Positions 3,422 through 43,396 of a stretch of 64,000 nucleotides of DNA are shown in pieces. Source of the stretch: an uncultured bacterium (GTDB taxonomy: Bacteria > Acidobacteriota > Thermoanaerobaculia > Multivoradales > JAHZIX01); NCBI GenBank assembly GCA_965368975.1, contig CBDUPA010000013.1, positions 64,001 through 128,000 on the forward strand, written 5' to 3'. A program made the translations under genes and the position numbers. Under the pieces are notes generated by a model that saw only the letters and a list, made by a program, of their open reading frames with translations, was not told the DNA's origin and made no database searches. Each line of letters begins with the position of its first letter. Positions within the stretch are counted from its first letter, which is position 1.

Positions 3422-3558
3422 GTCGTACCTTTCGAGAGGATGCTCGTTGGCAAGCAGATCTGGCAGTGGGGATGGAGGTCGGACCGCGGTCAGGGAGTAG
3501 CATGTGGGTTGAACCGGGGGTATTGGAAGGTCGCCTGAGAGTATCACAGCGCCTGGCC

Positions 3559-5584: not shown

Positions 5585-6028
5585 TCAAGCCCCCGGATCC
5601 TCCTCCAGCCGATCCGCGATCGATGCCGGGATCGGCACCGTCTTCAAGCCCTCTGGCAGCCCCATCAGGCAGCATGCAGCGGCTGTGTGGCCGCGCGCCA
5701 GCAGGCGGCCGTCGCAGTGGATCTCCCAGGCGTAGGTCATTGACGTCCGGCCCTTGCGACGGATGCGCAAGTGCACGTCGAGAACATCCTCGAAGCGCGC
5801 CGGTGCCTTGAAGTCAGCCGACGACGCGAGCCGCGGCCAGCCGGCACGCTGGCCATCGACCTCAAACTCGACGCTGGTGCCGAGCGAGCGCAAGAAGGCG
5901 TGCTCGGCCTCCTCGGCGAAAACGAAGTAGCGAGAGAAATGCAGGATGCCACCCATGTCTGTGTCCGCGAACTCGACCCGACGCTGGTAGTGGAAGTCGC
6001 GGACCTTCGGTGCGGGTAATGGGCTCAC
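5585..6028 (-). CDS. Hot-dog fold acyl-CoA thioesterase (4HBT/YbgC family)
   Basis: RRVEFADTDMGGILHF motif; start overlaps the GT4 stop. Confidence 0.88.
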   Translation of the reverse strand: MSPLPAPKVRDFHYQRRVEFADTDMGGILHFSRYFVFAEEAEHAFLRSLGTSVEFEVDGQRAGWPRLASSADFKAPARFEDVLDVHLRIRRKGRTSMTYAWEIHCDGRLLARGHTAAACCLMGLPEGLKTVPIPASIADRLEEDPGA

Positions 6029-7362
6029 GCGGCCCTCCCTGCGGCTTGGGTCACCAGCTTCTCGTAGATGTCCAGCGTCCGTCGCGCCATCGCCTCGTCA
6101 CTGTGTTCCGTGTGCACGACCTTGCGTGCCCGCTCCCCCATGCTGTGACGGTGCTCGCGGCTGCGCATCAGCAACATCAACGCGGCAGCGACGGCGTCCG
6201 CGGATTCAGGTTCGACGAGCAGGCCGCCGCCGGTGCGTTCCAGCATCTCGGGGAAGACCCCGTGGTGAGGCACGACGACCGGGACGCCAGCGGCCTGTGC
6301 CTCGAGCAGACTCAATCCCTTGGATTCGCGGTAGACAGTGGGCACCGCCACCGCATCGACGCTGCGCAGGAGCGCCAACTTGCCCGCCCGGTCGACCTCA
6401 CCGAGCATCTCGACCTGCTCCGCCAACCCCCACTCCTGCAGTCGTGCCATCTGCTCGGCAGCGTAGGCCTGGTCCTTGGGCCCCAGGTACCCGGCGATGC
6501 GCAGGCGTACTCTCGACTTGCCAGCCTGTTCTGCCAGCTGACGGAAAGCCTCGACCAGGATGTGCAGGCCTTTCTCAGGACAGATGCGCGCCAGGAAGCC
6601 AATGGCGAATGGGGGCTCCTCCGCTGCCGCCTCGACAGTGGCGCGCGGCAAGGGCGTGCCGGGCGGGTCGAAGTCCTGCAACAAGAGACCGAAGGGAACG
6701 ATGTGAATGCGCTCGCGCTCGACGTGGAGGTAGTCGGCCATGAAATCGGCGTACTCGCTGCTGCCACAGAGGAAGGCGTCGGCATCGTGCACGCGCTCGT
6801 ACAGCACCTGGCGAGCGCGCGTCCGGTAGGGCTCGATGAGGTCGTCGAGGAAGATCTCCTCCCCCAACAGGGAGCACACGACCGGCACGCCGAGTTCCTG
6901 CTTGACGCGCCGTGCGACCCCGAGCAGCATCGAATTCTGCAGCTGCACGACGTCGGGCCGCAGATCGGAGCGCAGCCAGTCGACCAGGGCCTCTAGCTCA
7001 CTGGCGCTGTTGCCGTCTTCGCCTTCGAGCATGGTGACGGTCAGGCGACCGAGGTCGCGCGCGTCACTGCTGGCGCTGAAACGCGATACGTACTCGAGCA
7101 CCGAGCGGCGATCGAGCCAGCGGTGCAAGAAGCCGGGCAGACGCGCAAACCAGCGCGAGCGGCTCTGCAGATAGACGTTGACCGCCCCGAAAAACACGCG
7201 ATCCATGCTGACATTGGTCTCGTCGGTGCGCATCGGCGTGTAGAGCGGGATCAGCGCCGCATCGTGGCCGAGGCGTTGCAGCGCCGCCGCCAGGGTGTTG
7301 TCGTGGATACAGGCGCCGCACAGCATGCCGGCGGCACCCGCGGAGATCATGCCGACCTTCAT
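6025..7362 (-). CDS. Glycosyltransferase family 4 with N-terminal CGAC motif
   Basis: ARICPEKG and ESKGLSLLEAQAAGVPVV GT-B motifs. Confidence 0.88.
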   Translation of the reverse strand: MKVGMISAGAAGMLCGACIHDNTLAAALQRLGHDAALIPLYTPMRTDETNVSMDRVFFGAVNVYLQSRSRWFARLPGFLHRWLDRRSVLEYVSRFSASSDARDLGRLTVTMLEGEDGNSASELEALVDWLRSDLRPDVVQLQNSMLLGVARRVKQELGVPVVCSLLGEEIFLDDLIEPYRTRARQVLYERVHDADAFLCGSSEYADFMADYLHVERERIHIVPFGLLLQDFDPPGTPLPRATVEAAAEEPPFAIGFLARICPEKGLHILVEAFRQLAEQAGKSRVRLRIAGYLGPKDQAYAAEQMARLQEWGLAEQVEMLGEVDRAGKLALLRSVDAVAVPTVYRESKGLSLLEAQAAGVPVVVPHHGVFPEMLERTGGGLLVEPESADAVAAALMLLMRSREHRHSMGERARKVVHTEHSDEAMARRTLDIYEKLVTQAAGRAA

Positions 7363-8846
7363 GTCGTGCTCCCGGCTCCCCGGGGAGCGAAGAAGCGCGC
7401 CACGTGTTCGCTCGACGGCGGGCGACTGGCCAACGAGACGACGATCAACACCAGAGCCGCGCTGAGCAGGATAATGGCCACGGGCATCACGCCGCTACCG
7501 GCCACCGTGTAGCCCGGCACCTGCCAACCGTGGACGAAGAAGAAGATCCACAGCACAATCACCGTCAACACCGCAGCGATGGCGCCGGCGCGCGTGCTGC
7601 GCCGCCAGTAGAGGGCGGCCACGACCAACGGCACCAGCGCCGCGAAGCCGGTGAAGGACCACACACCGAGCTTGAAGATCGACGCCGGCGACACCAGCGA
7701 CAGCAGGAAGGTCAGCGCCAGCAGGCCACCGACAAACCAGCGGCCGGTCCGCACCTGCGCGGCCTCACTCATTGTCTTGCCGCGAGCGTGCTGTACCGGA
7801 CGCACGACGTCCTGTGTGAACATCGTCGACAACGCCAACACCTGCGAGTCGAGCGACGACATGATGGCCGCGAAGACGCCCGCGGTGAGCAGACCGGCGA
7901 GCAGTTCCGGGGTGTGCAGACCGATCATGCGCACCAGCACCGAGCTGGCCTCCGGGCCCTGCAGCGCCGGAAAGTCGAGCTTGCCGAGCATGCCGATCAG
8001 GACACTGGGCACCCACACGATCACCAAACACAGCGGGTAGGCGATCATCGGCAGGCGAAAGCTGCGCGCGTCGCGGGCCGAGAGCCAGTGCAAGAAGATG
8101 TGCGGGAACATACCGACCGACAGCGGAATCAGCGTGTAGCTGAGGAGCTTTTGCCAGGGCATGCCGTCACCGCGCCGCAGCAACTCGGGTTCGACCGCCG
8201 CCAGGCGTCCCAGCGCCGCTTCCAGGCCACCAACTTGGCGCAGGATGAGGAAGAAAGTGACAGCGCCCAGCGTCATGAAGACCAGTGTCTGGAAGGTGTT
8301 GGCCCAGGCAGTGCCGCGCAGACCGCCATAGCTGACGTAGGTCAGGACAACGGCCGTGATGACCAGACTTCCCAACCACTGCGGCACCTCACCACCGGTG
8401 ATCTGCGCCACCGCGACGCCACCGCCGAGGACACCGATCAACAAGTATGGGATGACCAGGAGCACCAACACGGCGAACAGCAGCACGCCGAGGCCGCGGC
8501 TCTGGTAGCGCGCCTGGAAGAATTGCACTTGCGTCAGGTAGCCGTGCCGCTTCCCCACCGCCCACAGCCGGATGCCGACGAAGAAGAAGACCAGCGGCAC
8601 GACGATCGCCGATGCTGAGGCCATCAGCGCAAAGACGCCGACCCCCTGGCGGTAGGCCTCACCCGAGGCGCCGAGCAGTGAGAACGACGTCATGTGCGTA
8701 CCGAACAGGCTCATCAGCAGCACGAAGGGGCCAATCGTCCGCGTGGCGAGGAAGAAGTCCTCACCGGTACCTCGAAACAAACGATGGCTGAGCAAGCCGA
8801 TGCTCAAGACCAGCATGAGGTAGAGCACCAAGACTGCGATGATCAT
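7359..8846 (-). CDS. Sodium:solute symporter family transporter
   Basis: Many TM segments; YGGLRGTAW, AAIMSSLDS motifs. Confidence 0.92.
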   Translation of the reverse strand: MIIAVLVLYLMLVLSIGLLSHRLFRGTGEDFFLATRTIGPFVLLMSLFGTHMTSFSLLGASGEAYRQGVGVFALMASASAIVVPLVFFFVGIRLWAVGKRHGYLTQVQFFQARYQSRGLGVLLFAVLVLLVIPYLLIGVLGGGVAVAQITGGEVPQWLGSLVITAVVLTYVSYGGLRGTAWANTFQTLVFMTLGAVTFFLILRQVGGLEAALGRLAAVEPELLRRGDGMPWQKLLSYTLIPLSVGMFPHIFLHWLSARDARSFRLPMIAYPLCLVIVWVPSVLIGMLGKLDFPALQGPEASSVLVRMIGLHTPELLAGLLTAGVFAAIMSSLDSQVLALSTMFTQDVVRPVQHARGKTMSEAAQVRTGRWFVGGLLALTFLLSLVSPASIFKLGVWSFTGFAALVPLVVAALYWRRSTRAGAIAAVLTVIVLWIFFFVHGWQVPGYTVAGSGVMPVAIILLSAALVLIVVSLASRPPSSEHVARFFAPRGAGSTT

Positions 8847-9070
8847 GCCGCGGACTCCTCCTCGGAGACATTTTGCGGCCAGCCGACTCGCACTAGAAGA
8901 GCCATGACGCCGGCGACCAGGAAGCAGTAGCCAACGTGGTAGAGAAAGACCGCCGGTAGCCCGAGCCAGAGGCGGTCAGCGCCATCGACGGGCACCAGTC
9001 GCCACAACCAGGCGTCTTCGTGCAGCAGGTAGACGCTTGCCAACAGGAGTAGCAGAGGGAGCCGGCGCAT
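8843..9070 (-). CDS. Small 2-TM membrane protein accompanying SSS transporters (DUF3311-like)
   Basis: 75 aa, two hydrophobic segments, LGLP motif, 4-bp overlap with the SSS start. Confidence 0.7.
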   Translation of the reverse strand: MRRLPLLLLLASVYLLHEDAWLWRLVPVDGADRLWLGLPAVFLYHVGYCFLVAGVMALLVRVGWPQNVSEEESAA

Positions 9071-9087
9071 GGTTTCCAGCTGTTCTC

Positions 9088-10425
9088 TCAGACGCCGGCA
9101 CGCAGGTGTGCAGCGCCTTCCGTTACGTCCGCGGGGGCGCTGAGCGTGAAGGGTTCCAGGGCCCAGGCCCCTGGGATCTGCGTCATCTCGGCCATGTCCT
9201 CGAACATCCCGTCGAAATCATGATCGAAGACGCCGCCGAGCAGAATCTTGACGACATCGTCACGACGCTCGGGGAAGCGGCGCAGGAAGTCGGCAAAGCT
9301 GAAGTCCTTGTCGTAGAAGGCGTAGACTAGCTTGCGAAAAGCCTCCATGCCGCCCAGGAACTCCGCCTCGAAGGCGCCCAGCCGAGCGCCCGAGACATCG
9401 CCATCGGCGAGACCGGCGCAGATCGCGTCCGCCGCCATCTCACCGCTCTTGAGCGCCAGCAACACGCCGCTCGAGTAGAGCGGATCGATAAAGCCGTAGG
9501 CATCACCGACCAGTACCCAACCGTCGCCGGCCCGCTCACGGCTACGGTAGGTGAAGTCCCGCAGGACTTGCGCCGGGAACGCCTGGAAGGCCCCTTCAAG
9601 CCGCTCGGCCAGAGCTGGACACAACGCCACCTGCTCGTCGAAGACGTCCTGCGGCGGTCGCTTGTCGTCTGGCCGCACGAGGTATTCTAGCGGCGCGACC
9701 ACTCCAACACTGACCTGGTCCCCGGGCAGCGGGATGTACCAGAACCAGGAATCCTTGTCGCGCGTCTCCATCACCAGCGTGGCTCCCTCGTCGATACCAG
9801 GATCGCGCCGCGCAGCCTTGAAGTGGCTGAAGATGGCGGCGTTGCGCAGCTCCGGATCTTCCTGCCGCAGCCCGAAACGGCGTGCCAGCATGCCGCTCTG
9901 CCCGCTGGCGTCGACCACCACCGAGGCCATCAGATGCCGCGTCGATGTCGTGTCTCCATCCTGGGCAGCACCGCGGGCCGCCTTGACTTCGACGCCGACC
10001 GCGCGGTCGCCATCGAACAGCACATCGACAACCTTGACGCCGCGGTGGACCTCGGCACCCAGGCGGGCGGCGTTGTCGAGCAGCATCTGGTCGAACTCGG
10101 AACGCACCACCTGCCAGGTCTGCGGGTGCTCGAAGCCCTCGGCTTCTTCGAAGTAGAAGGGCGCCGAAGCCTTCTCCCCGCGGCTGAAGAACTGCACGCT
10201 GTACTTCTTGGTGAAGTGACTGGCTTGCAGCTGCTCGACCATGCCCAGCCGCTCCAACGTGTCATAGGTCGCCGGGATCAGCGACTCGCCGATCTTGAAG
10301 CGCGGCGAAGGGTCGCGCTCCAAGAGCAGCACACGCAGGCCTCGGTCGGCGATCAGAGCCGCTGCTGTGGCCCCCGCCGGGCCACCACCAACGACGATAA
10401 CGTCATAGCTGTCGGACTGGAACAT
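9088..10425 (-). CDS. FAD-dependent halogenase-like oxidoreductase
   Basis: GGGPAG, IGESL, FTKK (catalytic-Lys region), WFWYIP (WxWxIP), GDAYGFIDPLYSSG. Confidence 0.85.
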   Translation of the reverse strand: MFQSDSYDVIVVGGGPAGATAAALIADRGLRVLLLERDPSPRFKIGESLIPATYDTLERLGMVEQLQASHFTKKYSVQFFSRGEKASAPFYFEEAEGFEHPQTWQVVRSEFDQMLLDNAARLGAEVHRGVKVVDVLFDGDRAVGVEVKAARGAAQDGDTTSTRHLMASVVVDASGQSGMLARRFGLRQEDPELRNAAIFSHFKAARRDPGIDEGATLVMETRDKDSWFWYIPLPGDQVSVGVVAPLEYLVRPDDKRPPQDVFDEQVALCPALAERLEGAFQAFPAQVLRDFTYRSRERAGDGWVLVGDAYGFIDPLYSSGVLLALKSGEMAADAICAGLADGDVSGARLGAFEAEFLGGMEAFRKLVYAFYDKDFSFADFLRRFPERRDDVVKILLGGVFDHDFDGMFEDMAEMTQIPGAWALEPFTLSAPADVTEGAAHLRAGV

Positions 10426-10458
10426 GGTCTCTCCTCGGGTTGCATCCGTGGACGGCGC

Positions 10459-11802
10459 TCAGCCGATCTGCAGGCTGACCAGGACTTCTTCGTCGCGCAC
10501 GAACAGGCGGTCACCGACCAGGGTCGGCATGGTCCAGGTCTTGCTGTCGAAGAGCTGCAGGCGATCCTGCTCCTTGTAGCCTTCGGGCGTTGCCTCGACT
10601 AGTACCAGCTGCCCCCGCTCGCCGAGCACGTAGAGGTAGCCGTCGGCATAGACCAAAGAGCCGTGACCCAGGCCACGTTCGGCCCACACTTGCTCCCCGT
10701 CAGAGACGCGGATGCACTTGAGCGTCTTGTTGTCGAAGCCGTAGAGGTGGTCACCGAGCAAGATCGAAGAGCTGAACTGATTGCGCATGCGCGGGTTGTT
10801 CCACACCTCACGAACGCTGAAGCCGTCCCCCTCGCCGCGCTGCAACTCGAGCAAGGCGGCACCGGTGCTGTAGCCGGAAGCCACGAACAGGCGGTTGGGA
10901 GCGATGAAGATCGGCGTCGCGGCATTGACGTCGTAGTCGGTACGCCAGTCGTGCTGCCACAGCACCCGACCATCGGCGGGCGCCACACCCACCACCTTGG
11001 CGGCCAAGAAGAAGACGATCTGCCGCACGCCATCGACCTCGATCGGCAGTGGTGCCGAGTAGCCGGCGCCATCGTCGCGACCGGCGGAGGTCGTCCACAC
11101 GGTCTCGCCCGTCTTCTTGTTCAGCGCCACGATCGAATTGCTGCCGGCGCCACCGACGTCGACCAGGAGCAGGTCGCCCTCGACCAGCGGCGCCATCGAG
11201 ATGCCCCAGGTCGGAATGCGCGCGCCGAAGGTCTTGATCAGGTCGACGTGCCAGCGCTCCTCCCCATCTTGGACGCCCAGGGCATAGAGTTGCCCCTGGG
11301 CACCCAATGCGTAGACCGTGTCACCGTCGATCGTCGGGGTCGAGCGCGGCCCGTCGCCGAATTGGTTGCGGAACACGGCATCCAAGCGCTGCTCCCACAC
11401 GCGCTCGCCCGAAGCGGTGTCGAAGGCGCCCGCGAACTCACCATCACCGCGACTGTAGAGCGTGAAGAGCCGTCCCTGGGCGATCGACAGCCCCGAGTAG
11501 CCGCCACCGACCTCGGTGCGCCACAGCATCTTCGGACCGGCGTCCGGCCAATCATGCAGCAAACCCGTGGCTGGCGACTTGCCGTCTCGCTGCGGCCCGC
11601 GGTACTCCGGCCAACTGCCCTCGACGGGCGTCGGTGCGGTGCTGGTGCCGGTATCGGCTGTCGGTAGGGCATCGGCCTGCGAGGCCGTGCCATTGCAGGC
11701 GACCAGCAGGGCGGCGGACGCAAGCACGAGCAGCATCACGGCGACCAGAGGCTGGGTGCGAAGGCGAGAGCGAAGGGATGAAGAGCGGCGGTCGGGCATC
11801 AT
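10459..11802 (-). CDS. PQQ-type beta-propeller lipoprotein
   Basis: LVAC lipobox; WPEYRGPQRDG N-terminal motif; repeated AxDxxxGxxxW blades. Confidence 0.85.
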   Translation of the reverse strand: MMPDRRSSSLRSRLRTQPLVAVMLLVLASAALLVACNGTASQADALPTADTGTSTAPTPVEGSWPEYRGPQRDGKSPATGLLHDWPDAGPKMLWRTEVGGGYSGLSIAQGRLFTLYSRGDGEFAGAFDTASGERVWEQRLDAVFRNQFGDGPRSTPTIDGDTVYALGAQGQLYALGVQDGEERWHVDLIKTFGARIPTWGISMAPLVEGDLLLVDVGGAGSNSIVALNKKTGETVWTTSAGRDDGAGYSAPLPIEVDGVRQIVFFLAAKVVGVAPADGRVLWQHDWRTDYDVNAATPIFIAPNRLFVASGYSTGAALLELQRGEGDGFSVREVWNNPRMRNQFSSSILLGDHLYGFDNKTLKCIRVSDGEQVWAERGLGHGSLVYADGYLYVLGERGQLVLVEATPEGYKEQDRLQLFDSKTWTMPTLVGDRLFVRDEEVLVSLQIG

Positions 11803-11808
11803 GTTCTC

Positions 11809-13278
11809 CTAAAGTCCGTCCGGTGCATCGGGGGGGAGGGTCCCGGCGGCTCCGGGATGGGCTTCTCCGCTACCCTTCGACGCGCGACCGGTTTCGGGTT
11901 CAACTTCGGCGTCACAGAGACAATCTTGCGCTGCCTCGGTGGCACCCGGCGGGGCGGTTCCAGTGACCGCCGCCAGCTTGCGCAGTGCCGACGAGCGCAG
12001 GTCCAAGCGTACCAGTTCCCCGTGAGTGCTCGACGCTCCACGGCTCGCTGCGCTCGCGGCAGTACCGCGCAGGTAGAGGAATCCATCGGCGAGCGCTGGC
12101 AAGGCCCAGGTCTTCCCCTCGAAGACTTGCAGACGCCCGAGTTCACGGTATGCCTCCGGCGTCGCTTCGGCCAGCACGAGCGTGCCTTTCTCGCCGTAGA
12201 GCAGCAGCCTGCCGTCGGCGAGGAGCACCGAGCCCTTGCCGAGGGCGGGCCTCGCGTCGCGGCCGCGGCCCCGATCCGCCCAGCGCGTCGCACCGCTAAC
12301 GGCGTCCAGGCACTTGAGGGTGCCATCGTCGAAGCCATACAGGTGGCCGTCGTGATAGATGGCCGAATGGAAGTGCGTCTTGATGTCGCGGCTCCGCCAC
12401 AGAGCCTGCGCACTCGGCTGACCGTCCGTGGCCGTCACTTGCAGCAGCGCCCCGCCGACGTCGTAACTGGCCGCAACAAAGACACGGTCGTTCGGCAGCA
12501 CCAAGGGGGTAGCGATGTTGGTGCCGTAGAAGGTATCCCACGGATCGTGCCAGTAGCGCGTGCCGCTTTCCGGGTCGATGCTCGTCAGACCGGCGGCGTG
12601 GAAGAAGAGCACCTGCCGAACCCCAGCCAATTCAGCGATCACCGGAGCCGCATAGCCGGCGCCACCGGTGCCATCGCGCCACAGCAAGCTGCCGGTTGTA
12701 CGCTCGAAAGCGGCAAAGGTGCCCGTGTCTCCACCGACCTCGACGATCACCTTGCCTCCCGCCGGATCACGGACAACCAGGGGCGAGCCGGAATAGCCGA
12801 AGTGCGGTCCCTTGCCGCCGTACTCGGCGACCAGATCGTGCCGCCAACGCTCCACGCCCTCGACCGCATCGGCCGCCACCAGCACGCCGGTTCCACTGAG
12901 AGCGAAGACCATGCCGTCGTCGACGGTCGGCGTCGCGCGCGGACCGTCGCCCTGGTCGTTGCGCAGGACAGGGCTCATGCGCAGGCGCCAGACGCGGGCC
13001 CCGTCTTCGGCGCGCAGGCAGGTCAGGTACTCGTGTCGATCGTCGGCTTCCTGCGTATAGAGCAGCCCACCGACCACCGCGACGCTCGAATAGCCGGCAC
13101 CGAGCGGTACGCGCCAGAGCTCCGGTGGTCCCTCGGCAGGCCAGGTCGTGAGCAGGCCGTCTTCGGTCGAGATTCCGTCGCGGTTGGGGCCCTGGTATTG
13201 CGGCCAATCGGCGGCCAGGAGGAAAGGGAGCAGGACGCTGAGGAACCCTGCAAGAGCCAACCTTCCTATGCCTCTCAC
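11809..13278 (-). CDS. PQQ-type beta-propeller protein, secreted; paralogue of 10459-11802
   Basis: Signal peptide; DWPQYQGPNRDG; GDGPRATP; Trp-docking repeats. Confidence 0.85.
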   Translation of the reverse strand: MRGIGRLALAGFLSVLLPFLLAADWPQYQGPNRDGISTEDGLLTTWPAEGPPELWRVPLGAGYSSVAVVGGLLYTQEADDRHEYLTCLRAEDGARVWRLRMSPVLRNDQGDGPRATPTVDDGMVFALSGTGVLVAADAVEGVERWRHDLVAEYGGKGPHFGYSGSPLVVRDPAGGKVIVEVGGDTGTFAAFERTTGSLLWRDGTGGAGYAAPVIAELAGVRQVLFFHAAGLTSIDPESGTRYWHDPWDTFYGTNIATPLVLPNDRVFVAASYDVGGALLQVTATDGQPSAQALWRSRDIKTHFHSAIYHDGHLYGFDDGTLKCLDAVSGATRWADRGRGRDARPALGKGSVLLADGRLLLYGEKGTLVLAEATPEAYRELGRLQVFEGKTWALPALADGFLYLRGTAASAASRGASSTHGELVRLDLRSSALRKLAAVTGTAPPGATEAAQDCLCDAEVEPETGRASKGSGEAHPGAAGTLPPDAPDGL

Positions 13279-14636: not shown

Positions 14637-14703
14637 ATGGAGAACTCCTAAGTGCGGAGATGAGCGGCTGTGCGCGGAGCTGAGAGCCGAAGAGAGGGCG
14701 ATT

Positions 14704-15852
14704 TCAGCCGAAGCAGTAGAGCGTGCCGTCAACGGTGCCGATCACCAAGCGCCCGTCGGCGATAGCGGGTGAGGCGAGGATGTCGGAGCCGGTGGTGAAC
14801 TGCCATTGCACCTCGCCGCTCTCTACATCGAGCGCTAGCAGGGTGCCGTCGAGCGGCGCCGCGTAGACGCGTGAGCCAGCGATCACCGGCGACGCATCGT
14901 AGCGCGCGCGGCTGCTGTGGCTCCACAACTCTGCGCCGGTCGCGCTGTCGAGGGCACGCAGGATCTTGTCCCGGCCGCCGATCACGACCCGCCCACTCTC
15001 CCCCGCAGTCTTTCCCGCGGCGAGCGCCGCCGAGGCGAAGTACGGGAACTTGCGCACGGGGTGCTCATAACGCCAGACGACTTCAGCCTTGCTCAGGTCG
15101 ATGCCCAGAACCTCGTTCTCGAAAGTGCCGACGTAGGCCCTCCCGTCGAGGATGGCGGCACCGGCGGCGGTATAACCACCGAGCGGAATCTGCGCGAGCT
15201 CCTTGCCGTCACTCAGGCGGACGCGGCGCAGGACTCCATCGCAGCCGGCGGACAGCGCGCTGCCCTGCCACAGTGCCGGCGGTGCGTGCACCGGCCCTCC
15301 CGTCTCGACCTTCCAGCGCAGTTGGCCATCGGCAGGATTCAGGCAGTAGAGGAACTGGTCGTACGAGCCGAAGAGCACGCAGCCCTCGGCGAGCAGGGCC
15401 GACGACGTCACTTCGGCTTCTGCCTCGAACGTCCACAACACCTTGCCGTCCTTGGCCGACAGCGCGTGGAAGGTGCCTCCTTCGTCACCGAAGTAGAGCT
15501 TGCCGTCCACGACCGTCGGCGTCGACTTGATCTCGATGCCGGCGCTGTACTTCCATTTCAGTTCCCCGCTGGCGAGGTCCAGAGCATAGAGGTGACCGTC
15601 CAGCGACCCGACGAAGACCGCGCCATCGACCACGGCAGCCGCCGCTTCGAAGCCTCCTTCGGCATGGAAGGTCCAGCGCGCTTCCAGCTCGGCGGGCAGC
15701 GCAACGGCACGGTGGCCGGTCAGCTGTGGATCCCCGCGAAAGCTCGGCCAGTCGCCGGCATCCGCGCGGGCTACCGGCGCGCCCAGAGCCAGCAGGGTCA
15801 GGAGGAGGCAAGAAGAGGCGTGGAACAGGACCACTGAACAGCGGGGCTTCAC
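14704..15852 (-). CDS. PQQ/BamB-like beta-propeller protein, secreted
   Basis: DWPSFRGD; regular GSxDGxLYALDxxxGxxxW repeats; GTG 15852 overlaps the ADH stop. Confidence 0.85.
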   Translation of the reverse strand: MKPRCSVVLFHASSCLLLTLLALGAPVARADAGDWPSFRGDPQLTGHRAVALPAELEARWTFHAEGGFEAAAAVVDGAVFVGSLDGHLYALDLASGELKWKYSAGIEIKSTPTVVDGKLYFGDEGGTFHALSAKDGKVLWTFEAEAEVTSSALLAEGCVLFGSYDQFLYCLNPADGQLRWKVETGGPVHAPPALWQGSALSAGCDGVLRRVRLSDGKELAQIPLGGYTAAGAAILDGRAYVGTFENEVLGIDLSKAEVVWRYEHPVRKFPYFASAALAAGKTAGESGRVVIGGRDKILRALDSATGAELWSHSSRARYDASPVIAGSRVYAAPLDGTLLALDVESGEVQWQFTTGSDILASPAIADGRLVIGTVDGTLYCFG

Positions 15853-17123: not shown

Positions 17124-17162
17124 GACGTACTCCTTGCCGTGCGGTCCAATATTCAGCGGGCT

Positions 17163-17216
17163 GGCTGCAGCGATTTTGGCTGCAGCGATTTTGGCTTCAG
17201 CGAGGTTGGCTTCAGC
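17163..17216. repeat. 15-bp-period tandem repeat (about 3.6 copies)
   Basis: GGCTGCAGCGATTTT x2, GGCTTCAGCGAGGTT, GGCTTCAGC in the spacer between the ALDH-like and ADH genes. Confidence 0.75.
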
Positions 17217-18723: not shown

Positions 18724-18741
18724 CCTTCGGTCGACGCCGAT

Positions 18742-19830
18742 TCAGTAAACGCCGACCGTGACCGAGGTCTTGAGGCTGGAGAGCAGCCGCAGATTGCTCA
18801 CGCCGTCCCAAGGGTAGAGTGCCGTCGGTTCGGTTCGTTCACCTTCGTCGCGTTCCGGAAAGCGCGGCATGAAGAACTCGCGCGTCAGTGTGGTGAGCAA
18901 CACGCGACCGGTCTGTCCGTAGTCTACCGCCTTGTCAAGGTCCTCAGGGTCGACGATCTCGAAAATGGCGCGCGGAGCTGGCGCGTAGTAGGTGATCGTG
19001 TAGTCCTTGAGCTGCGGATCGAACGGCTTGGACTTGGCCAGCCCCATCAGGGTGTTGCCGTAGACCGGCACGAAGTCGATGCCCGGTACCAGCTCCTCGC
19101 GGGCGAAGCGGTGGAATTGCTTGTTCATCTCCGTGCCGCCGCAGAAGATGCCCCGGATACCCAGCTTGGCCAGGTCGACCTTCTCGCACAGCGCTTCGAG
19201 CAGCTTGGGCGTGGTGAAGATGCAGCGAATCTCGTGCGCGCGCAAAATGGTCAAGCCCTGGTGGATGACGTGTTCCTTGTACGCCTCCATCTCCTCGAAG
19301 CGCTGCGCCCTGAGCAGCTTGTTGACCCAGCGCGGATCGAGGTCGACGTGGAACGCAATACCACCGCGATATTGCGCCAGGTGCTCGATCGCCAGCCGCA
19401 GGCGACGAGGCCCCGTGGGCCCCAGCATCAACCAGTCGGCACCGCGCGGGAAGCCCTCAGAGTCGAGCGAGTCGGCCATCTCTTCGTAGTCGACGCGGAA
19501 GTCGTTGATGTTGATGCGGCTCTTGGGAACACCAGTAGAACCTCCTGTCTCGAACACGGAGACCGGCTGATCCGCTAGGGCCCGAGGCACCCAGCGGCGA
19601 ACCGGGCCACCGCGCAGCCACTCGTCTTGGAAGTGACCGAGCAGCTTGAGGTCGTCGTAGTTGCCAATCTCCTTGCGCGGGTCGAAGTCGAGCCCTCGCG
19701 CGTACTCGAGCCAGAAAGGGCAGCCACTGGCGGGATCGAAGTGCCAGGAGACCATCTCGCGGACGTGCTCGTCGAGACGGTCGCGGGCGGCGGCAATGGC
19801 GTCGGAAAGAGGGGTGCTGAGAGTATCCAT
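18742..19830 (-). CDS. GriC/EhpF-like (LuxE/PaaK superfamily) adenylate-forming protein
   Basis: WHFDPASGCPFW, ETGGSTGVPK P-loop, DLDPRWV, YGNTLMG motifs typical of the EhpF/GriC family. Confidence 0.75.
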   Translation of the reverse strand: MDTLSTPLSDAIAAARDRLDEHVREMVSWHFDPASGCPFWLEYARGLDFDPRKEIGNYDDLKLLGHFQDEWLRGGPVRRWVPRALADQPVSVFETGGSTGVPKSRININDFRVDYEEMADSLDSEGFPRGADWLMLGPTGPRRLRLAIEHLAQYRGGIAFHVDLDPRWVNKLLRAQRFEEMEAYKEHVIHQGLTILRAHEIRCIFTTPKLLEALCEKVDLAKLGIRGIFCGGTEMNKQFHRFAREELVPGIDFVPVYGNTLMGLAKSKPFDPQLKDYTITYYAPAPRAIFEIVDPEDLDKAVDYGQTGRVLLTTLTREFFMPRFPERDEGERTEPTALYPWDGVSNLRLLSSLKTSVTVGVY

Positions 19831-20064
19831 GGAGTGCTCGGCCCGAGTGCGAGGTCAGCGGGAAAGCGCGCTGGTCGCGCGCCCGAAGGTGTCAACTACG
19901 ACTCTCCTGGTACGTCCGCGCGGTCGGCAAGGTTGCTTTGCCGTGCACCGCCGAGGTCGTTCGAAGATTCGTCTTCCGAGGGTTCGTAGCCAACCGACCG
20001 CCGGATGTGCCGGCGGTCGGATTCTGTGTCGTTGTGCAGTCTACCGCCCGAAGGCGCGGCGGAC

Positions 20065-21573
20065 TCAGCCGTCCGACGGCTTCAGCATCGCGCCTTCTTT
20101 GAGCGCGAACAACTGCGTGCGGCTCAGTATGTAGAGCACGCCGTCCTGCGCCACCGGTGTGGTGTAGACAGCGCTGCCCAGGTTGATCTCGGCCAGCACC
20201 TTCTTGGTCTTACTGTGCTCGAGCACAACCAGGTCGCCGTCCTCGTCGCCCAGGTAAACCTTGCCATCGGCAACGAAGGGCGAACCCCAGACCGCGGCGA
20301 AGGCGTCGTAGGTCCAGTAGTGCTCACCGGTATCGGCGTTGAGCGCGTAGAGGAAGCCAGACAGGTCTGCGGCGTAGGCGATGTCGTCCTTGATCGCGAC
20401 CGTCGAGATGGTGCGGTGGAAGTCTTCGCCACCGCGGTGCCAGATCACCGCCTTGTCGGTGACGTCCCCACGCTGCTTGCCGTCGACCACCCACAGGTGT
20501 CCCGGTCCCTCACCGTGCTCGGGATCCTGGCCGACCGCGATGTAGACACGGTCCTTGTGAATCACCGGCGTCGAGATGATGTTGTTGCGCGTGCCGGCGC
20601 CACCGAGACGCCACTGCGAGTCCTTGGGGTTGCAGTCGAACTTCCAGATCAGGTCGCCGGTCTTGGGGTCGAGCGAGTAGAGCCAGCCATCGCCCCCCGG
20701 GTAGATCAGCATCGGCGTGCCGCCGATGACGCCATACGACGGGTTCGACCAGCTACCGTGCAGGATGTTCTCGCCCGGCATGGTGTTGTCCCACACCAGC
20801 TTACCGGTGTCCTTGTGCACCGCGACCAGGCTGGGGCCGAAGGGCGACGGCACGTTGACGTGGCCCTCGTCGACACCATTGCCCGTCACCGCGTACACCA
20901 GGTCGCCGACGATCAGCGGCGAGCCGGCAGCCAGGTTGTGCGGGAAGACGTCCAACTCGCCGATCAGGTCGAGCGACCAGATCAGATCCGGGCCGTTCTC
21001 GGACTTGTCGTTCTCGTCCTTGATCGGACCGTCGTTCTCGCCGTCGTGCAAGCCCTCGGTGTCGGCGCACACGAGTTCAGCGCGGTTGGACACGTAGTAG
21101 AGGCGATCCCCTTCGATGTAGGGCGTCGAGCAGATCCCCTGCAGTGGCCAGTCGTGCACGCGGCCATCGGGCAGTTTGGTGTGGGTGGACTGCCAGAGCA
21201 GCGCTCCGTTCTCGAGGTCGAAGGCCATGATCACACCGCGGTCACCGGTGAGCTGGGGGTTCTTCTCGGCCTCGTTGTTGGTGCCGACGTAAACCTTGCC
21301 ACCGGCCACGACCGGTCCAGCGTAGCTTTGCGAGCCGACGCGGGCTGTCCACAGGATGTTCTTGCCACTCGCCGGGTCGAATTCGGTCGGCAGACCGGTC
21401 TCGTCGGACACCATGTTGCGGGACGGCGTGTTGCCGTACATCGCGACTTCCTGGGCCTGCACGGCCGGAGTTCCTACCAAGCCTGACGACAGAAGGGCCG
21501 CCACCAGGATCAGGGCCAGCGCCCACGCTTGCACCATCGGGATCGAGTTTGCGCGTCTCGAGGTCGTGCTCAT
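20065..21573 (-). CDS. PQQ-type beta-propeller protein, secreted
   Basis: Signal peptide; MYGNTPSRNM; Trp-docking repeats. Confidence 0.85.
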   Translation of the reverse strand: MSTTSRRANSIPMVQAWALALILVAALLSSGLVGTPAVQAQEVAMYGNTPSRNMVSDETGLPTEFDPASGKNILWTARVGSQSYAGPVVAGGKVYVGTNNEAEKNPQLTGDRGVIMAFDLENGALLWQSTHTKLPDGRVHDWPLQGICSTPYIEGDRLYYVSNRAELVCADTEGLHDGENDGPIKDENDKSENGPDLIWSLDLIGELDVFPHNLAAGSPLIVGDLVYAVTGNGVDEGHVNVPSPFGPSLVAVHKDTGKLVWDNTMPGENILHGSWSNPSYGVIGGTPMLIYPGGDGWLYSLDPKTGDLIWKFDCNPKDSQWRLGGAGTRNNIISTPVIHKDRVYIAVGQDPEHGEGPGHLWVVDGKQRGDVTDKAVIWHRGGEDFHRTISTVAIKDDIAYAADLSGFLYALNADTGEHYWTYDAFAAVWGSPFVADGKVYLGDEDGDLVVLEHSKTKKVLAEINLGSAVYTTPVAQDGVLYILSRTQLFALKEGAMLKPSDG

Positions 21574-23843
21574 TCGCTTACCATCACTTTCACGTTGTCA
21601 TAGTAAATGTCTACCGGCGCGTAGCCGTAGAGGCCGGGGCTGCCAGTCTCGATTGGCAGCGTGTCTTCCACCACCAGAGTCCAGTCGCCCGGCTCGGCCT
21701 CGTCTCGCGGCCACACTTTACCGCGGATGATCGCCTTGCCTTCCGCCTGGTCGACGCGCAGTTTCATGGTGTACCAGCGGTCCATGTCCCAGGCATAGTC
21801 GATCCGCTGCATCATCCGTAGCTCAGCCGCCCAGGAGCGAACTTCCAGGCGCTGGTGATTGCCCTGCAAGTCGAGGGTGTAGCCGCCATTGATGACACCC
21901 GCGTCAGGCCTGCGGCGGCCTTCCTGGGTGCCTTTGAAGTCGACCTGGACGGTATAGCCGGACATGTCGGTGGGACCGAGGAAAGGGGTCGAGCGCGGTA
22001 CGCCCCGCGGCGCGCGCGGCATGTGCAAGACCTTGCCGGTCACCGCCGGATCCTCGATCTCGGCAACCGCAGCGCGGCCGGCGATACCGATCCAGATCTC
22101 AGGGACCGAGCCAACCTCGAGAGCTTCGAAGTCTTCCTCGATCGGCAGCGGACCGAAGACGCGCAGCCACGACTTGGCCGCCCGCTCCCCGACCTTGGCG
22201 ACGACTTGGCCGGTCTGGCCCGCGGTCGCGGCGTCGGTGCTGAACGTGCCGTCGCCATCGACGGCACCTTGCAGACTCTCCAGCGTCCAGGTGACATCGT
22301 CGACCGGTCCCAAGTAGTTGCCGTGCGCGTCATAGCCACGCACTTCGAAGTCCTGCGACTCCCCGGAGCGCAGCAGCTGTACCGCCGGCACCACCTGCAG
22401 TTGCGCCAGGGTTCCTTCGCCGCCAGTCGGTTTACCAGTCGGGTTGGCAGTAGCCTGCGCGGCGGGCGTGGCGGCCTGCATCAGCTGCGGGAACGGCTGG
22501 CTCTTGTCACCCAGCGCATAGATGCCTTCTTCCGTCGTGAAGTAGATGCGGCCGTAGGCGATCGCCGCCGAACCGTAGATCTCAGCGTAGCGGCCGTCGG
22601 GCATCTCGATATGTACCTCGTGCACCACCGTTCCCTCGGCAGCTTCCCCGCCCTCCGTGGGCGGCTCGACGATCAGCACGTTGCCGTTGACCTCATTGAT
22701 GTAGATGCGGCCGTCGGCCCACACCGGTGAAGCCTTGCCGACATTGCCGTAGTTGACTTCCCACAACGGCTTGCCGCTGGACGCTTCGAGGGCGTGCAGG
22801 TTGGCCGAATTGTCGGCCACGTAGAGGCGGCCCTCGTGCAACAATGGCGTCGGGAAGCCCGAGGAGATATCGCTACGCCAGCGCTCGTGTGTCTTGGTCA
22901 CGTCGCCGCTGCCGGTAGCGTCGATCGCCACCACGCGGCCCATCACCGCCGAGTCGATGTTTTCTTCGCTGTGCGCGGCGTAGACGGTAGCACCGTCCGC
23001 CACGACCGAGGCGTTGATACCGCGCTGGCTGAGGTGGAACTGCCACACCAGCTTACCGGTCCGTGACTGCAGCGCGTAGATCCAGCCATCGGCACCGCCG
23101 CCGACCACCAGCCGCTGACCGTCGACCTCGGTGATCACCGGAATACTCTGGGTGTTGAAGTCGGCGACGCCGGTACCAACGGTGGTGAACCACAGCACCT
23201 CACCGGTGCGCTTGTCGAAGGCGTAAAAGCGGTGCCGCGGGCCAGCTTCTTTGCCCCACATCTTGCCGATCAGACTGATGATCATGCGGTCTTCGTCGAG
23301 GATCGGCGTGTGCGTGCGGCCGCCATAGCCCGAGAAGCGCCCCAGTTCCTCGAAGGTGCGGCGCGTCCAGACGATCTCGCCGTCGCGATCGAAGCACACG
23401 AGCTGGCCATCGACGTTGGTGACGTAGAGGTAGCCGGTCTCGGGATCCCCCGCCACACTCCCCCAGCCAACCCGGTTGAAAGGCACCGTCGTGTTGTACA
23501 CGTTGAACGTGCGCTGCCACAGTAGCTCACCGCTCTCGGCGTTCCAGCACGCCACGATCTCTTGCTTGGTGGCGCCGTCACCCGTACGGCCGTTGGCGCA
23601 CGCGCGACCGTCGAAGACCGCCGGCGTCGAACGGCCGGTGAAGTCATGACGCCAGATTAGATGCTCGCCGTCCAGGGACCACGACGTGATCAGGTCGCTG
23701 GCCGTCGACACACCGGTCTGCTGCGGTCCGCGCCAGCCGGCCCACTCTTCCACCGCGGTCGCGGGTCCGGCCATCGCTACCGCCGCCAGGATGGCGATCG
23801 AGGCGGCGACGAGAGCCACCGCATACTTCAAATTTTTGCGCAT
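21570..23843 (-). CDS. Large PQQ-type beta-propeller with C-terminal Ig-like and ConA/lectin-like domains
   Basis: Signal peptide from ATG 23843 (GGAGG RBS); WAGWRGP; propeller repeats; C-terminal WYTMKLRV...IYYDNVKV beta-sandwich pattern. Confidence 0.8.
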   Translation of the reverse strand: MRKNLKYAVALVAASIAILAAVAMAGPATAVEEWAGWRGPQQTGVSTASDLITSWSLDGEHLIWRHDFTGRSTPAVFDGRACANGRTGDGATKQEIVACWNAESGELLWQRTFNVYNTTVPFNRVGWGSVAGDPETGYLYVTNVDGQLVCFDRDGEIVWTRRTFEELGRFSGYGGRTHTPILDEDRMIISLIGKMWGKEAGPRHRFYAFDKRTGEVLWFTTVGTGVADFNTQSIPVITEVDGQRLVVGGGADGWIYALQSRTGKLVWQFHLSQRGINASVVADGATVYAAHSEENIDSAVMGRVVAIDATGSGDVTKTHERWRSDISSGFPTPLLHEGRLYVADNSANLHALEASSGKPLWEVNYGNVGKASPVWADGRIYINEVNGNVLIVEPPTEGGEAAEGTVVHEVHIEMPDGRYAEIYGSAAIAYGRIYFTTEEGIYALGDKSQPFPQLMQAATPAAQATANPTGKPTGGEGTLAQLQVVPAVQLLRSGESQDFEVRGYDAHGNYLGPVDDVTWTLESLQGAVDGDGTFSTDAATAGQTGQVVAKVGERAAKSWLRVFGPLPIEEDFEALEVGSVPEIWIGIAGRAAVAEIEDPAVTGKVLHMPRAPRGVPRSTPFLGPTDMSGYTVQVDFKGTQEGRRRPDAGVINGGYTLDLQGNHQRLEVRSWAAELRMMQRIDYAWDMDRWYTMKLRVDQAEGKAIIRGKVWPRDEAEPGDWTLVVEDTLPIETGSPGLYGYAPVDIYYDNVKVMVSE

Positions 23844-24019
23844 TGTCGGGATCCTCCGTACGGCCCGGAGCAAACCCACCGGCAGCCGGCTTCAGGCCGG
23901 TGCCGCGAGATTCATCAGCGAGTATCGATAGGGAACGGAAGTGGGAGAGGTGGGAATGTGGGCCGGTCATCCATAGACACGTTGATCCTACTATGGATGT
24001 CGGAGACTGGGCAAGAGGG

Positions 24020-25501: not shown

Positions 25502-25910
25502 GGTGCATGCCTCCGGCAAGGTTAAAAGTCTCTGGCCTAGAACGCGGCAAGGGCACGTCGGCGAGACCATGGGCGCATGTCGTCGCCATTTTCTTCGCCT
25601 TCCAGAGGTCGCGGACGCAACCTTGGGCAAGCTAGAAAGTAGCGGTAGCAGGGCGGGAGAAACGCCCCGGCGAGCTAGGCAAACGCACCCGGATGCGCTA
25701 AGATCCAGCTCATTGTTGCCGGTGCTCTGTACCCACGCGGTGCCCGCCGCACTTGCCGGCAGTTACATTTACTTAGCTCAGATCTTTCGAGATCTACATC
25801 TCTCTAGGAAGGGTGGACGCGATTCCTCCCATCCCTGCCAGGTTCATCGATTCGGCCTCGCTTCGTTGCGTGCCCAAGCCGGCCACGCTGCTCTAGCTCT
25901 ATACAGTCTG

Positions 25911-30260: not shown

Positions 30261-30284
30261 TCGGCTAGCTTAGCACCCACAGTC

Positions 30285-31916: not shown

Positions 31917-31975
31917 TCCCATGCCAGCAGCACAGGCCCTGAGCCCAGCGCATCCATCCTGAAGAAAGACCGACC

Positions 31976-33226: not shown

Positions 33227-33269
33227 TGTGGCGTTGGCAGCTCCTTGACGACGCGGAGCGTGCGCACCG

Positions 33270-38650: not shown

Positions 38651-38672
38651 ACCTTCCACGGGGACCCCAACC

Positions 38673-42894: not shown

Positions 42895-42926
42895 GTACTC
42901 TCTCCGTTGGATCGGTGGCTATAGAC

Positions 42927-43076: not shown

Positions 43077-43099
43077 GACGGGCTCCTTGAATCATGAGA

Positions 43100-43366: not shown

Positions 43367-43396
43367 TTGACACCTCCCATTCTTGCGCTGTAGTAT
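43367..43396 (+). promoter_or_regulatory. Candidate sigma70 promoter for the radical SAM gene
   Basis: TTGACA-N18-TAGTAT. Confidence 0.5.

Follow-up and report, generated by a model that had tools for sequence, protein, structure and literature searches.

Two-protein carboxylic acid reductases, in which a short stand-alone adenylating enzyme is followed by a partner of the aldehyde dehydrogenase (ALDH) family, are represented by EhpF/EhpG of the phenazine pathway to D-alanylgriseoluteic acid in Pantoea agglomerans and by GriC/GriD of the grixazone pathway in Streptomyces griseus. GriC is described as making the acyl-AMP of 3-amino-4-hydroxybenzoate (3,4-AHBA), which GriD reduces to the aldehyde (PMC10179220), and ehpF and ehpG are described as adjoining in phenazine operons (PMC11278526). 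Here we analyse a 64,000-nucleotide stretch of DNA from an uncultured bacterium (Acidobacteriota, Thermoanaerobaculia), positions 64,001 to 128,000 of contig CBDUPA010000013.1 in assembly GCA_965368975.1 and referred to throughout as the window, in which a 14-gene operon at positions 5585–23843 appears to encode a reductase of this kind together with five β-propellers, P1 to P5. The Ehp and Gri pairs are the closest described systems for the reductase. Unlike their pathways, the one encoded here has no phenazine genes and no 3,4-AHBA genes (GriH/GriI), and its reductase pair stands among a predicted halogenase, a HemN-like radical S-adenosylmethionine (SAM) enzyme, a GT4 glycosyltransferase, transporters and four propeller families.

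Another described system resembles the possible start of the pathway. In Planctomycetales strain 10988, a chorismate-lyase-like enzyme and a flavin brominase acting on 4-hydroxybenzoate (BaaA/BaaB) have been proposed for 3,5-dibromo-p-anisic acid; in that account the baa locus consists of those two genes only, and their role is presented without genetic verification (bioRxiv 10.1101/723874). Compared by description rather than by sequence, planctomycete versions of our cluster are alike in that a lyase-type gene adjoins the flavin halogenase gene. Unlike the baa locus, the genome studied here has its lyase-fold gene on another contig, and the pathway that we infer continues to reduction and glycosylation. 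The bromophenol genes Bmp5/Bmp6 offer a further comparison with a pathway start of the BaaA/BaaB type; Bmp5 is a different, single-component flavoenzyme.

For the propellers, parallels come from periplasmic systems. Like the pyrroloquinoline quinone (PQQ) dehydrogenases, P2 is predicted to be an exported eight-bladed propeller with a top face, and the parallel is one of logic only: PQQ is an aromatic polycarboxylate that is made in the cytoplasm or imported through a TonB-dependent receptor and is loaded in the periplasm. Unlike the PQQ systems (pqqA–E, PqqU), the propellers here fall below the family cut-offs and have no Cys-Cys pair, the genome has no pqqC or pqqE, and the associated receptor is not PqqU. 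The heme d1 system (NirS, NirF, NirN and the radical SAM enzyme NirJ) combines genes for several homologous eight-bladed propellers of the periplasm with those for the cytoplasmic enzymes that make their ligand. We use it as a working analogy only, for cytoplasmic synthesis that may be combined with periplasmic propellers; unlike heme d1 loci, the operon has no Cytochrom_D1 domain reported on its propellers, no tetrapyrrole genes and a radical SAM enzyme that is HemN-like rather than NirJ-like, and its remaining chemistry points to a benzoate. Membership in the heme d1 or PQQ systems is excluded. BamB is the best structural match of the P2 model, and P5 carries a lipobox in this genome; unlike BamB, the five propellers lie below the equivalog cut-off, and a lipobox occurs in only 2 of 30 members of the P4/P5 family. 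Literature searches, with supplements outside their scope, found no published description of the cluster and no characterised precedent for natural-product chemistry coupled to dedicated periplasmic propellers.

Gene order and co-occurrence

We consider it probable, if some way from certain, that the 14 genes form one conserved operon and are the largest piece of a multi-locus system that makes and handles a modified aromatic molecule of the hydroxybenzoate type. All 14 lie on the minus strand and are read from P1 first to a thioesterase last (Table 1). The original prediction, made from the letters of the window, had described 14 co-oriented genes with six overlaps, and all of these are seen in the coordinates of the open reading frames (ORFs): stop and start codons overlap by four bases at 6025/6028, 7359/7362, 8843/8846, 13275/13278, 15849/15852 and 21570/21573, the overlap at 15849/15852 holding only with the internal GTG start of P3. 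Every one of its domain calls is backed by Pfam and NCBIfam profile matches.

A search with the adenylating enzyme as query and one genome per species returned 199 relatives, and the best 80 loci, in which this enzyme is 62–79% identical, were examined. By record title these loci belong to Acidobacteriota (several classes), Latescibacterota, Gemmatimonadota, Planctomycetota, Poribacteria and Calditrichia, and thus include both phyla for which the original prediction had mentioned similar gene sets, Planctomycetota and Acidobacteriota. Many of these loci end at a contig end or at the 10-kb flank, which affects gene counts, and their genes were called with a simple ORF picker that makes errors in loci of lower G+C content. 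With these limits, matches to the window's proteins were found for the ALDH-fold protein in 64 of the 80 loci, P2 in 47, the iron-containing alcohol dehydrogenase (Fe-ADH) in 46, P1 in 40, P3 in 37, the radical SAM enzyme in 36, P5 in 32, the halogenase in 16, GT4 in 14, and the sodium:solute symporter family (SSS) transporter and the thioesterase in 3 each. The usual order is P1, P2, adenylating enzyme, ALDH, Fe-ADH, P3, radical SAM, P5, TonB receptor, halogenase. Relatives whose titles name at least five phyla share this gene order; a lack of synteny elsewhere had been listed beforehand as an outcome that would refute the original prediction, and the recurrence places the arrangement far beyond chance.

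The downstream part of the operon is also shared. In all five close relatives checked, SSS (59–61% identity) and then GT4 (50–53%) directly follow the cluster, which indicates that the arrangement of the operon is conserved in full. Eleven of the 14 gene families are shared by a planctomycete locus (L069), where GT4, P1, P2, the reductase pair, Fe-ADH, radical SAM, halogenase, DUF3311, SSS, thioesterase and P3 stand in an order that differs from that of the window; the same set in altered order points to function rather than to common descent of one block. Thioesterase orthologues are present in this locus and in a second planctomycete locus (L058).

Phylogenetic profiling, which the original prediction had proposed, gave a consistent result. 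Among 401 Acidobacteriota genomes drawn evenly from the phylum, 99 carry the adenylating gene (E ≤ 1e-30), 108 carry P2 (E ≤ 1e-80) and 85 carry the radical SAM gene (E ≤ 1e-100). The adenylating gene and P2 occur together in 98 genomes, that is in 98 of the 99 adenylating-gene carriers; 10 genomes have P2 only, 292 have neither, and the sole genome with the adenylating gene only carries a distant homologue (36% identical). All three genes are found in 80 genomes, and the radical SAM gene occurs without the adenylating gene in 5.

The co-occurrence of the adenylating gene and P2 is independent of linkage. In one genome (G073) the adenylating gene, P2 and the radical SAM gene lie at 3.15, 0.14 and 1.48 Mb of a single 3.95-Mb contig, and in another (G088) the same three genes lie at 4.40, 0.04 and 1.67 Mb. 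A third (G176) has a block of P2, Fe-ADH, P3, radical SAM, TonB receptor, halogenase and SSS 3.5 Mb from its adenylating gene. Because such unlinked parts co-occur, the operon in the window can be seen as the compact form of a system that is kept in pieces elsewhere. P1 and P2 are adjacent in all four fetched loci where P2 is far from the enzymes, among unrelated neighbours, and the P1–P2 pair appears to be one module of the system. A P1–P2 fusion, suspected from open frames of about 1250 amino acids (aa), was rejected, since the two matches lie in different frames and the genes are hence separate.

Table 1. Genes of the operon, in order of transcription, with positions in the window
Gene product	Position	Strand	Remarks
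P1, exported PQQ_2 propeller	21570–23843	−	ATG start; longest ORF from GTG 23879
P2, exported eight-bladed propeller (predicted), best conserved of the five	20065–21573	−	
Adenylating enzyme, EhpF/GriC-type stand-alone (predicted), 362 aa	18742–19830	−	
ALDH-fold reductase partner (EhpG/GriD-like, predicted), 503 aa	17212–18723	−	Pfam Aldedh 1.5e-12
Fe-ADH	15849 to ~17123	−	Start set at ATG 17123; longest ORF to 17345
P3, exported PQQ-like propeller	14704–15852	−	GTG start 15852 overlaps Fe-ADH stop
HemN-like radical SAM enzyme	13275 to ~14636	−	Pfam Radical_SAM and HemN_C
P4, exported propeller, P5 paralogue	11809–13278	−	Pfam PQQ_2 2.6e-29
P5, exported propeller with lipobox LLVAC in this genome	10459–11802	−	PQQ_2 1.2e-37
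Flavin-dependent halogenase-type flavoprotein	9088–10425	−	Trp_halogenase/FAD domain calls
Small DUF3311-like membrane protein, coupled to SSS gene	8843–9070	−	Pfam E 9e-4, below cut-off
SSS transporter	7359–8846	−	Pfam SSF 2.1e-41
GT4 glycosyltransferase	6025–7362	−	Pfam Glycos_transf_1 1.2e-31
4HBT-fold (YbgC/FadM-like) thioesterase	5585–6028	−	Pfam 4HBT 5.8e-12, 4HBT_2 2.1e-11

Enzymes and propellers of the system

The adenylating enzyme matches EhpF (PDB 3l2k/3hgu) with E 2.1e-41 over query residues 17–350 and chain residues 18–353, and its length is close to that of the EhpF chains (362 vs 366–369 aa). Pfam finds a partial AMP-binding domain only, and AMP-binding_C is absent even at E ≤ 10. 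These features suggest a short-form member of the ANL group of the EhpF/GriC type, for which ATP-dependent activation of an aromatic carboxylate is predicted. A LuxC/LuxE fatty-acid reductase was considered and rejected, as Pfam LuxE and LuxC are both unmatched even at E ≤ 10.

The ALDH-fold gene lies directly downstream of the adenylating gene after an 18-base gap, and the two are adjacent in 64 of the 80 loci. Aligned with 4e4g, a CoA-acylating methylmalonate-semialdehyde dehydrogenase used as reference, its C305 falls on the Cys of 'GERCMA' and its N181 on the Asn of 'PFNFPG', which we take to be the catalytic Cys and the oxyanion Asn, and both are invariant across 46 orthologues. It has 'HGPGWSK' in place of the ALDH motif 'ELGGK', with no Glu at the base position that presumably serves hydrolysis. 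The likeness of this protein to EhpG/GriD is one of gene position and active-site residues rather than of direct alignment. Together the two proteins are best described as a predicted two-protein carboxylic acid reductase of the EhpF/EhpG (GriC/GriD) type. The Fe-ADH encoded next matches Pfam Fe-ADH (9.8e-38) and ADH_Fe_C (1e-32).

The flavoprotein encoded further downstream has only halogenases as its top PDB matches (8zop, 8e-65; Bmp2, 1.8e-53; PltA, 2.6e-53; CndH, 6e-51; CmlS, 9e-48), with geranylgeranyl reductase reaching 2.5e-10 only. It scores below the CmlS equivalog cut-off of NCBIfam (186 vs 900 bits). The segment G13-G-G-P-x-G18 (GGGPAG), K74 and W227-F-W229-x-I231-P232 are invariant in 14 orthologues, and they correspond to the GxGxxG motif, conserved Lys and WxWxIP motif that we take to define flavin halogenases. 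We therefore predict a flavin-dependent halogenase of the phenol/pyrrole type. Another contig of the genome (C5, locus L085, 8095–9483) encodes a further flavoprotein of the halogenase type, with 40% identity to that of the window, beside 2-oxoacid:ferredoxin oxidoreductase genes.

The radical SAM enzyme aligns over its full length with HemN (E 1.7e-33), and C97, C101 and C104 (CxxxCxxC) are invariant in its orthologues, with F106 in place of HemN's fourth Cys. Its scores lie below the cut-offs of HemN (TIGR00538, 169.7 vs 324.95 bits), HemW and ChuW/HutW (177.8 vs 400 for the last). With these scores and the missing fourth Cys, an identity as HemN or a heme-degradation enzyme was rejected, and the enzyme is best regarded as HemN-like rather than HemN. 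NocN (9p2u), which with ChuW and MenK represents the class C methyltransferases, also matches, with E 5e-22 over the core only, the full-length alignment to HemN being better; a role as a class C-type C-methyltransferase is plausible.

Among the remaining products, GT4 has a conserved N-terminal C15-G-x-C18. A small DUF3311-like gene also precedes the SSS gene in the planctomycete locus L069 (E 2e-5). A halide (NIS-like) importer was considered for the SSS transporter and rejected, as its best solved relatives are SGLT and SMVT and nothing specific favours halide.

We searched the whole source genome (G000) with genes that recur in related clusters, which yielded three further pieces. On one contig (C15), a gene for a 196-aa protein adjoins genes for a PaaK-like aryl-acid ligase and a further propeller. 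The model of this protein (predicted local distance difference test, pLDDT, 88.5) matched DUF98 2nwi (E 3.4e-7, template-modelling (TM) score to target 0.77) and UbiC 1fw9 (E 7.5e-4) in Foldseek and thus suggests a chorismate-lyase fold; a profile of 32 relatives gave a weak match to 2nwi (E 0.004), and many relatives are named chorismate-pyruvate lyase by JGI. Planctomycete clusters contain both the lyase-fold and the PaaK-like gene, the 196-aa type lying between the radical SAM and halogenase genes, and in one Acidobacteriota genome (G136) the lyase-fold gene directly follows the radical SAM gene.

A second piece, on contig C2, is a gene for a TonB-dependent receptor, 52–53% identical to the receptor that relatives encode between P5 and the halogenase. 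Among 52 loci with at least 9 kb of downstream sequence, 27 have such a receptor within the cluster, and P5 adjoins it in 21 of 32 radical-SAM-bearing loci. These receptors have plug and barrel by Pfam, and the cut-off of the siderophore-receptor family TIGR01783 (223.5 bits) is passed both by that of this genome (292.3) and by that of another locus (L037, 245). Among solved structures, the receptors for enantio-pyochelin, ferrichrome, catecholate and pseudopaline come closest, and the match to PqqU is weak (52.6 vs 1200 bits); the cluster-associated receptor is accordingly predicted to be of siderophore class and not PqqU. A 'make or import' rule, by which a cluster would have either the lyase-fold gene or the receptor, was suggested by the two never standing together in the 32 radical-SAM-bearing loci and was rejected because two genomes (G136 and G176) have both.

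The third piece, on contig C3 (258000–276000, L084), is a row of genes whose products are a GHMP-kinase-like protein, an ABC ATPase, a double-FtsX (MacB-type) permease of 1196 aa and a second Fe-ADH; a gene for a CLC chloride channel lies nearby on the opposite strand. GT4 and a MacB-type ABC pair accompany the reductase pair in other Acidobacteriota, and the row may belong to the same system or to this GT4/ABC variant.

The original prediction had also called five exported PQQ-type β-propellers. Five PQQ_2-type propellers are indeed present, each behind a Sec-like N-terminus with a positively charged start and then a hydrophobic stretch; 'exported' here denotes a reading of the N-termini by eye rather than by a signal-peptide predictor. 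The lipobox is present in P5 only. P4 and P5 are 40% identical paralogues, and most relatives have a single copy of this family, so that the five propellers represent four orthologous families.

None of them is placed among the quinoproteins by its scores. The best propeller reaches 89.8 vs 480 bits against the PQQ alcohol dehydrogenase family TIGR03075, with none over the TIGR03075 or TIGR03074 cut-offs, and 152.9 vs 285.2 bits against BamB (TIGR03300), with all five below that cut-off. The vicinal Cys-Cys pair belongs to PQQ dehydrogenases of the methanol/ethanol type, and no 'CC' occurs in any of the five sequences. In the source genome (7.1 Mb, 99.3% complete), the best matches to PqqC and PqqE reach 40.5 vs 240 and 84.6 vs 381 bits, and no PQQ alcohol dehydrogenase scores above cut-off; the earlier statement that no pqq genes lie in the window thus extends, for pqqC and pqqE, to the whole genome. 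Plain PQQ quinoproteins were rejected as the identity of the propellers on these low family scores and on the lack of pqqC and pqqE. From the same scores, the missing Cys-Cys pair and the missing genes it follows that 'PQQ-type' names the repeat and not a cofactor, and we classify the propellers, from their sequences, as being of the PQQ_2/BamB-like repeat type rather than PQQ dehydrogenases.

P2 is the propeller most open to a functional reading. Its AlphaFold2 model, built with 32 sequences, has eight blades and a pLDDT of 85.2. BamB comes first in Foldseek (E 1e-20, TM score to target 0.74–0.81), with PQQ dehydrogenases, YxaL and tetrathionate hydrolase below it, a ranking that we read as indicating the fold and nothing beyond; an ESM Atlas search matched only P2's own PQQ_2 clusters. 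The polar residues that are invariant in 32 orthologues down to 44% identity include H212, N213, D235, H238, H272, D350, E352, H353, E355, D370, R387 and E444. By the strand list that DSSP gives for the model, nearly all of them are assigned to B-C and D-A loops, a topological assignment by blade rather than a measured pocket. These loops form the top face of a propeller, the cofactor site of PQQ enzymes. The conserved polar face suggests ligand binding or catalysis, and P2 is probably the catalytic or ligand-binding part.

In P1 (Pfam PQQ_2 1.7e-30) the propeller spans about residues 45–470 and is followed by a C-terminal extension of about 300 aa with a faint match to the 3-keto-disaccharide-hydrolase domain (3keto-disac_hyd, E 0.05). 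P3 matches Pfam Beta-prop_ACSF4 with 188.6 bits (cut-off 133), and at E ≤ 1e-8 the genome encodes no paralogue of it. The genome is rich in PQQ_2 propellers, with 33 matched stretches in about 18 genes. P1, P2 and P3 have no close paralogue among its proteins (at most 27% identity); these three are dedicated single-copy parts of the system rather than members of a dispersed enzyme family. A role for P5 as a BtuG-like surface lipoprotein beside the TonB receptor was rejected on the rarity of the lipobox in its family.

Limits of the operon and other features of the window

Both neighbours of the operon, a mevalonate-diphosphate decarboxylase gene (4459–5538) and a gene for a NYN-domain protein (24020–25630), are absent from all 80 related loci, and the unit accordingly ends at the limits first proposed for it. 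An M1 peptidase with a leukotriene-A4-hydrolase C-terminal domain is encoded at 1502–4009, a few kb from the cluster, and a similar M1 peptidase lies a few kb from a lone P1–P2 pair in another genome (L089, 16172–18049), which may be chance.

Few candidate control elements were found. A search of positions 4000–26500 gave no Rfam match at E ≤ 1, and a promoter and terminator scan found no promoter-like site and terminator-like sites at chance level. The 234-base gap between P2 and the adenylating gene, which ranges from 4 to about 470 bases among relatives, contains a perfect 11-pair G+C-rich hairpin (19994–20020) that has no T tail on the gene strand. Upstream of P1, at about 23966–23991, the palindrome CCATAG-N14-CTATGG may be an operator; no counterpart was found across 85 fetched loci. 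The flanks of sampled loci (62 proteins) have no regulator in common.

An export block on the plus strand (29949–41777) comprises genes for an outer-membrane efflux protein, a HlyD-type adaptor, a C39-peptidase ABC transporter and a second ABC protein of 1038 aa, followed by one for a 1034-aa zinc-ribbon/AAA_16/TPR regulator-like protein. A possible graspetide (microviridin-type) peptide cluster at 51477–60468 includes genes for a MvdD-like pre-ATP-grasp protein (51477–52544), an unassigned 363-aa protein (52702–53793), a sigma-54 activator on the minus strand (53831–55027), a GAF/HlyD protein (56171–58156) and a C39-peptidase ABC exporter (58159–60468). The regions 48906–50420 and 60465–63247 encode an MBOAT acyltransferase and two AlgX-like SGNH proteins, the make-up of polysaccharide O-acetylation. 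The G+C content drops to 0.56–0.60 at 42000–46000 and 50000–52000, compared with about 0.66 elsewhere, which may mark foreign DNA; three ORFs at the low-G+C stretch (41699–42754, 43094–43393 and 44188–44670) have no Pfam match.

Possible products and significance

The predicted activities can be arranged as a pathway, whose specific substrate and order of steps are much less certain than the outline itself and somewhat more likely wrong than right. Where the gene exists, hydroxybenzoate would come from the chorismate-lyase-fold enzyme, encoded here on another contig; the PaaK-like ligase may form a CoA thioester, from which the 4HBT thioesterase would release the acid. The acid would be halogenated and then modified by the radical SAM enzyme, most likely by C-methylation. 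Its carboxylate would pass through an acyl-AMP to Cys305 of the ALDH-fold protein and leave as the aldehyde, which Fe-ADH would reduce to a benzyl alcohol and to which GT4 would add a sugar. In the periplasm, P1–P2, P3 and P4/P5 may process, bind or use the product, and within the P1–P2 pair P2 would be the subunit that acts as the enzyme or binds the ligand. Transfer of substrate, precursor or product through the inner membrane would fall to the SSS/DUF3311 pair, and passage through the outer membrane to the siderophore-class TonB receptor, which lies in the cluster in relatives and on contig C2 here.

Several observations weigh against this arrangement. The radical SAM gene is missing at E ≤ 1e-100 from 19 of the 99 adenylating-gene carriers, so the system must have reduced or divergent forms. 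The sampled genomes are interrelated, and the co-occurrence counts thus overstate independence and allow no probability to be derived; the sample also includes two unpublished genomes (G152 and G049). The 196-aa protein reached no Pfam or NCBIfam model, PF04345 and PF01947 being unmatched genome-wide, and of 11 Acidobacteriota genomes with the cluster that were examined, only 3 (G000, G136 and G176) yielded a chorismate-lyase-fold gene, which makes the proposed starter molecule less secure for most carriers. The nearest solved relatives of the halogenase act mostly on carrier-bound substrates, and no carrier protein is present beside it. P3 and P4/P5 conserve chiefly Gly, Trp and Pro, and the P4/P5 family has few polar invariants; since the conserved residues are mostly structural, no enzymatic role is supported for these propellers. 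Transporters of the SSS family normally act in import and the window has no exporter gene, so transfer of the product to the periplasm is assumed.

In the original prediction, the cytoplasmic enzymes built or tailored an aromatic molecule that was moved across the membrane and bound or used by the propellers as PQQ is by quinoproteins. The first half of this reading holds up well: synteny across phyla and co-occurrence even of unlinked genes argue for one conserved unit, and the EhpF/GriC-type pair, the halogenase and the chorismate-lyase-fold partner argue for action on an aromatic acid. Its comparison with PQQ enzymes fares less evenly, as P2 has a conserved polar top face, the site of the cofactor in those enzymes, while the propellers lie outside the quinoprotein families and P1, P2 and P3 are single-copy, with no scattered enzymes that would share a cofactor. 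In its developed form, the enzymes would build a new organic cofactor, the TonB receptor would salvage it, and loading onto the propellers, chiefly onto P2, would take place in the periplasm. The placing of P2's invariant His, Asp, Glu and Asn in top-face loops by topology, the joint presence, whether linked or not, of the adenylating gene and P2 in 98 of 99 genomes, and a genome with no pqqC, pqqE or PQQ alcohol dehydrogenase above cut-off are all consistent with it. So are the Sec-type signals, which imply that any ligand of the propellers would be loaded after export, and there are precedents in PqqU for TonB-dependent salvage of a cofactor into the periplasm and in heme d1 for a cofactor whose synthesis is cytoplasmic and whose completion or insertion falls to the propellers NirF and NirN in the periplasm. 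Against these stand the confinement of single-copy P1, P2 and P3 to the system, the absence of vicinal Cys-Cys from every propeller, a receptor of siderophore class with a weak PqqU match, and a pathway ending in a glycosyltransferase and a reduction to the alcohol, which would be unusual for a redox cofactor. We judge a cofactor system quite unlikely, and place no greater trust in the specific version of it in which a halogenated, methylated, hydroxybenzyl-derived cofactor is salvaged through TonB and loaded after export onto P1–P2. Were it true, Acidobacteriota, Planctomycetota, Latescibacterota and Gemmatimonadota, represented here by a genome without PQQ synthesis, would own a quinoprotein-like periplasmic enzyme.

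The glycosylation step and the receptor class fit a secreted metabolite better than a cofactor, and with a siderophore-class receptor inside most relatives' clusters, uptake of a secreted chelator or shared metabolite fits at least as well. Here the product would be secreted, bind metal and be re-imported through the receptor and the SSS permease, with the propellers perhaps tailoring or coupling it in the periplasm before secretion, as in the periplasmic maturation of pyoverdine. The receptor's score and solved relatives, its place within the cluster in 27 of 52 loci, the MacB-type ABC genes found with GT4 and reductase genes in other arrangements, and an EntS-family exporter beside the cluster in one locus (L070) point in this direction. 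A single halogenated hydroxybenzyl unit would nevertheless be a poor chelator; a nonribosomal peptide synthetase (NRPS), an NRPS-independent siderophore (NIS) synthetase and a catechol-forming enzyme are all absent, no Fur, FecIR or other metal regulator lies in the flanks of the sampled loci, and in this genome the receptor lies outside the operon. Taken together, these points leave a metallophore or shared metabolite unlikely, though not negligibly so. A system for uptake and conversion or detoxification of an outside aromatic acid, such as might come from lignin or humic matter, through the receptor, propellers and SSS transporter appears more improbable still. Two importer types go with the cluster, the lyase-fold gene was not found in 8 of the 11 carriers examined, and P4/P5 resemble binding proteins more than enzymes; yet the halogenase, glycosyltransferase and ATP-driven reduction of acid to alcohol are biosynthetic rather than catabolic, the lyase-fold gene stands between the radical SAM and halogenase genes in planctomycete clusters, small aromatic acids do not need a TonB receptor, and the Pfam matches include no ring-cleavage or β-oxidation genes. 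That the genes have no common function, the propellers being envelope proteins that merely share an operon with an unrelated pathway, is disfavoured and deserves hardly any weight. It could appeal to the abundance of PQQ_2 propellers in this genome and to lone P1–P2 pairs that adjoin unrelated peptidases, but not to a P2 found in 98 of 99 adenylating-gene carriers vs 10 of 302 non-carriers, even megabases apart, nor to an order kept in several phyla.

About a quarter of the sampled Acidobacteriota (99 of 401), together with members of several other rarely cultured phyla that dominate soils and sediments, carry this system, which joins predicted aryl-acid reduction, flavin halogenation and radical SAM tailoring to dedicated periplasmic propellers. 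Its co-occurring unlinked parts form a defined gene set for experiments. Identification of the product would explain a large block of 'PQQ-repeat' genes, and may point to bacteria as a widespread source of organohalogens, or bring to light a new chelator or cofactor of the periplasm.

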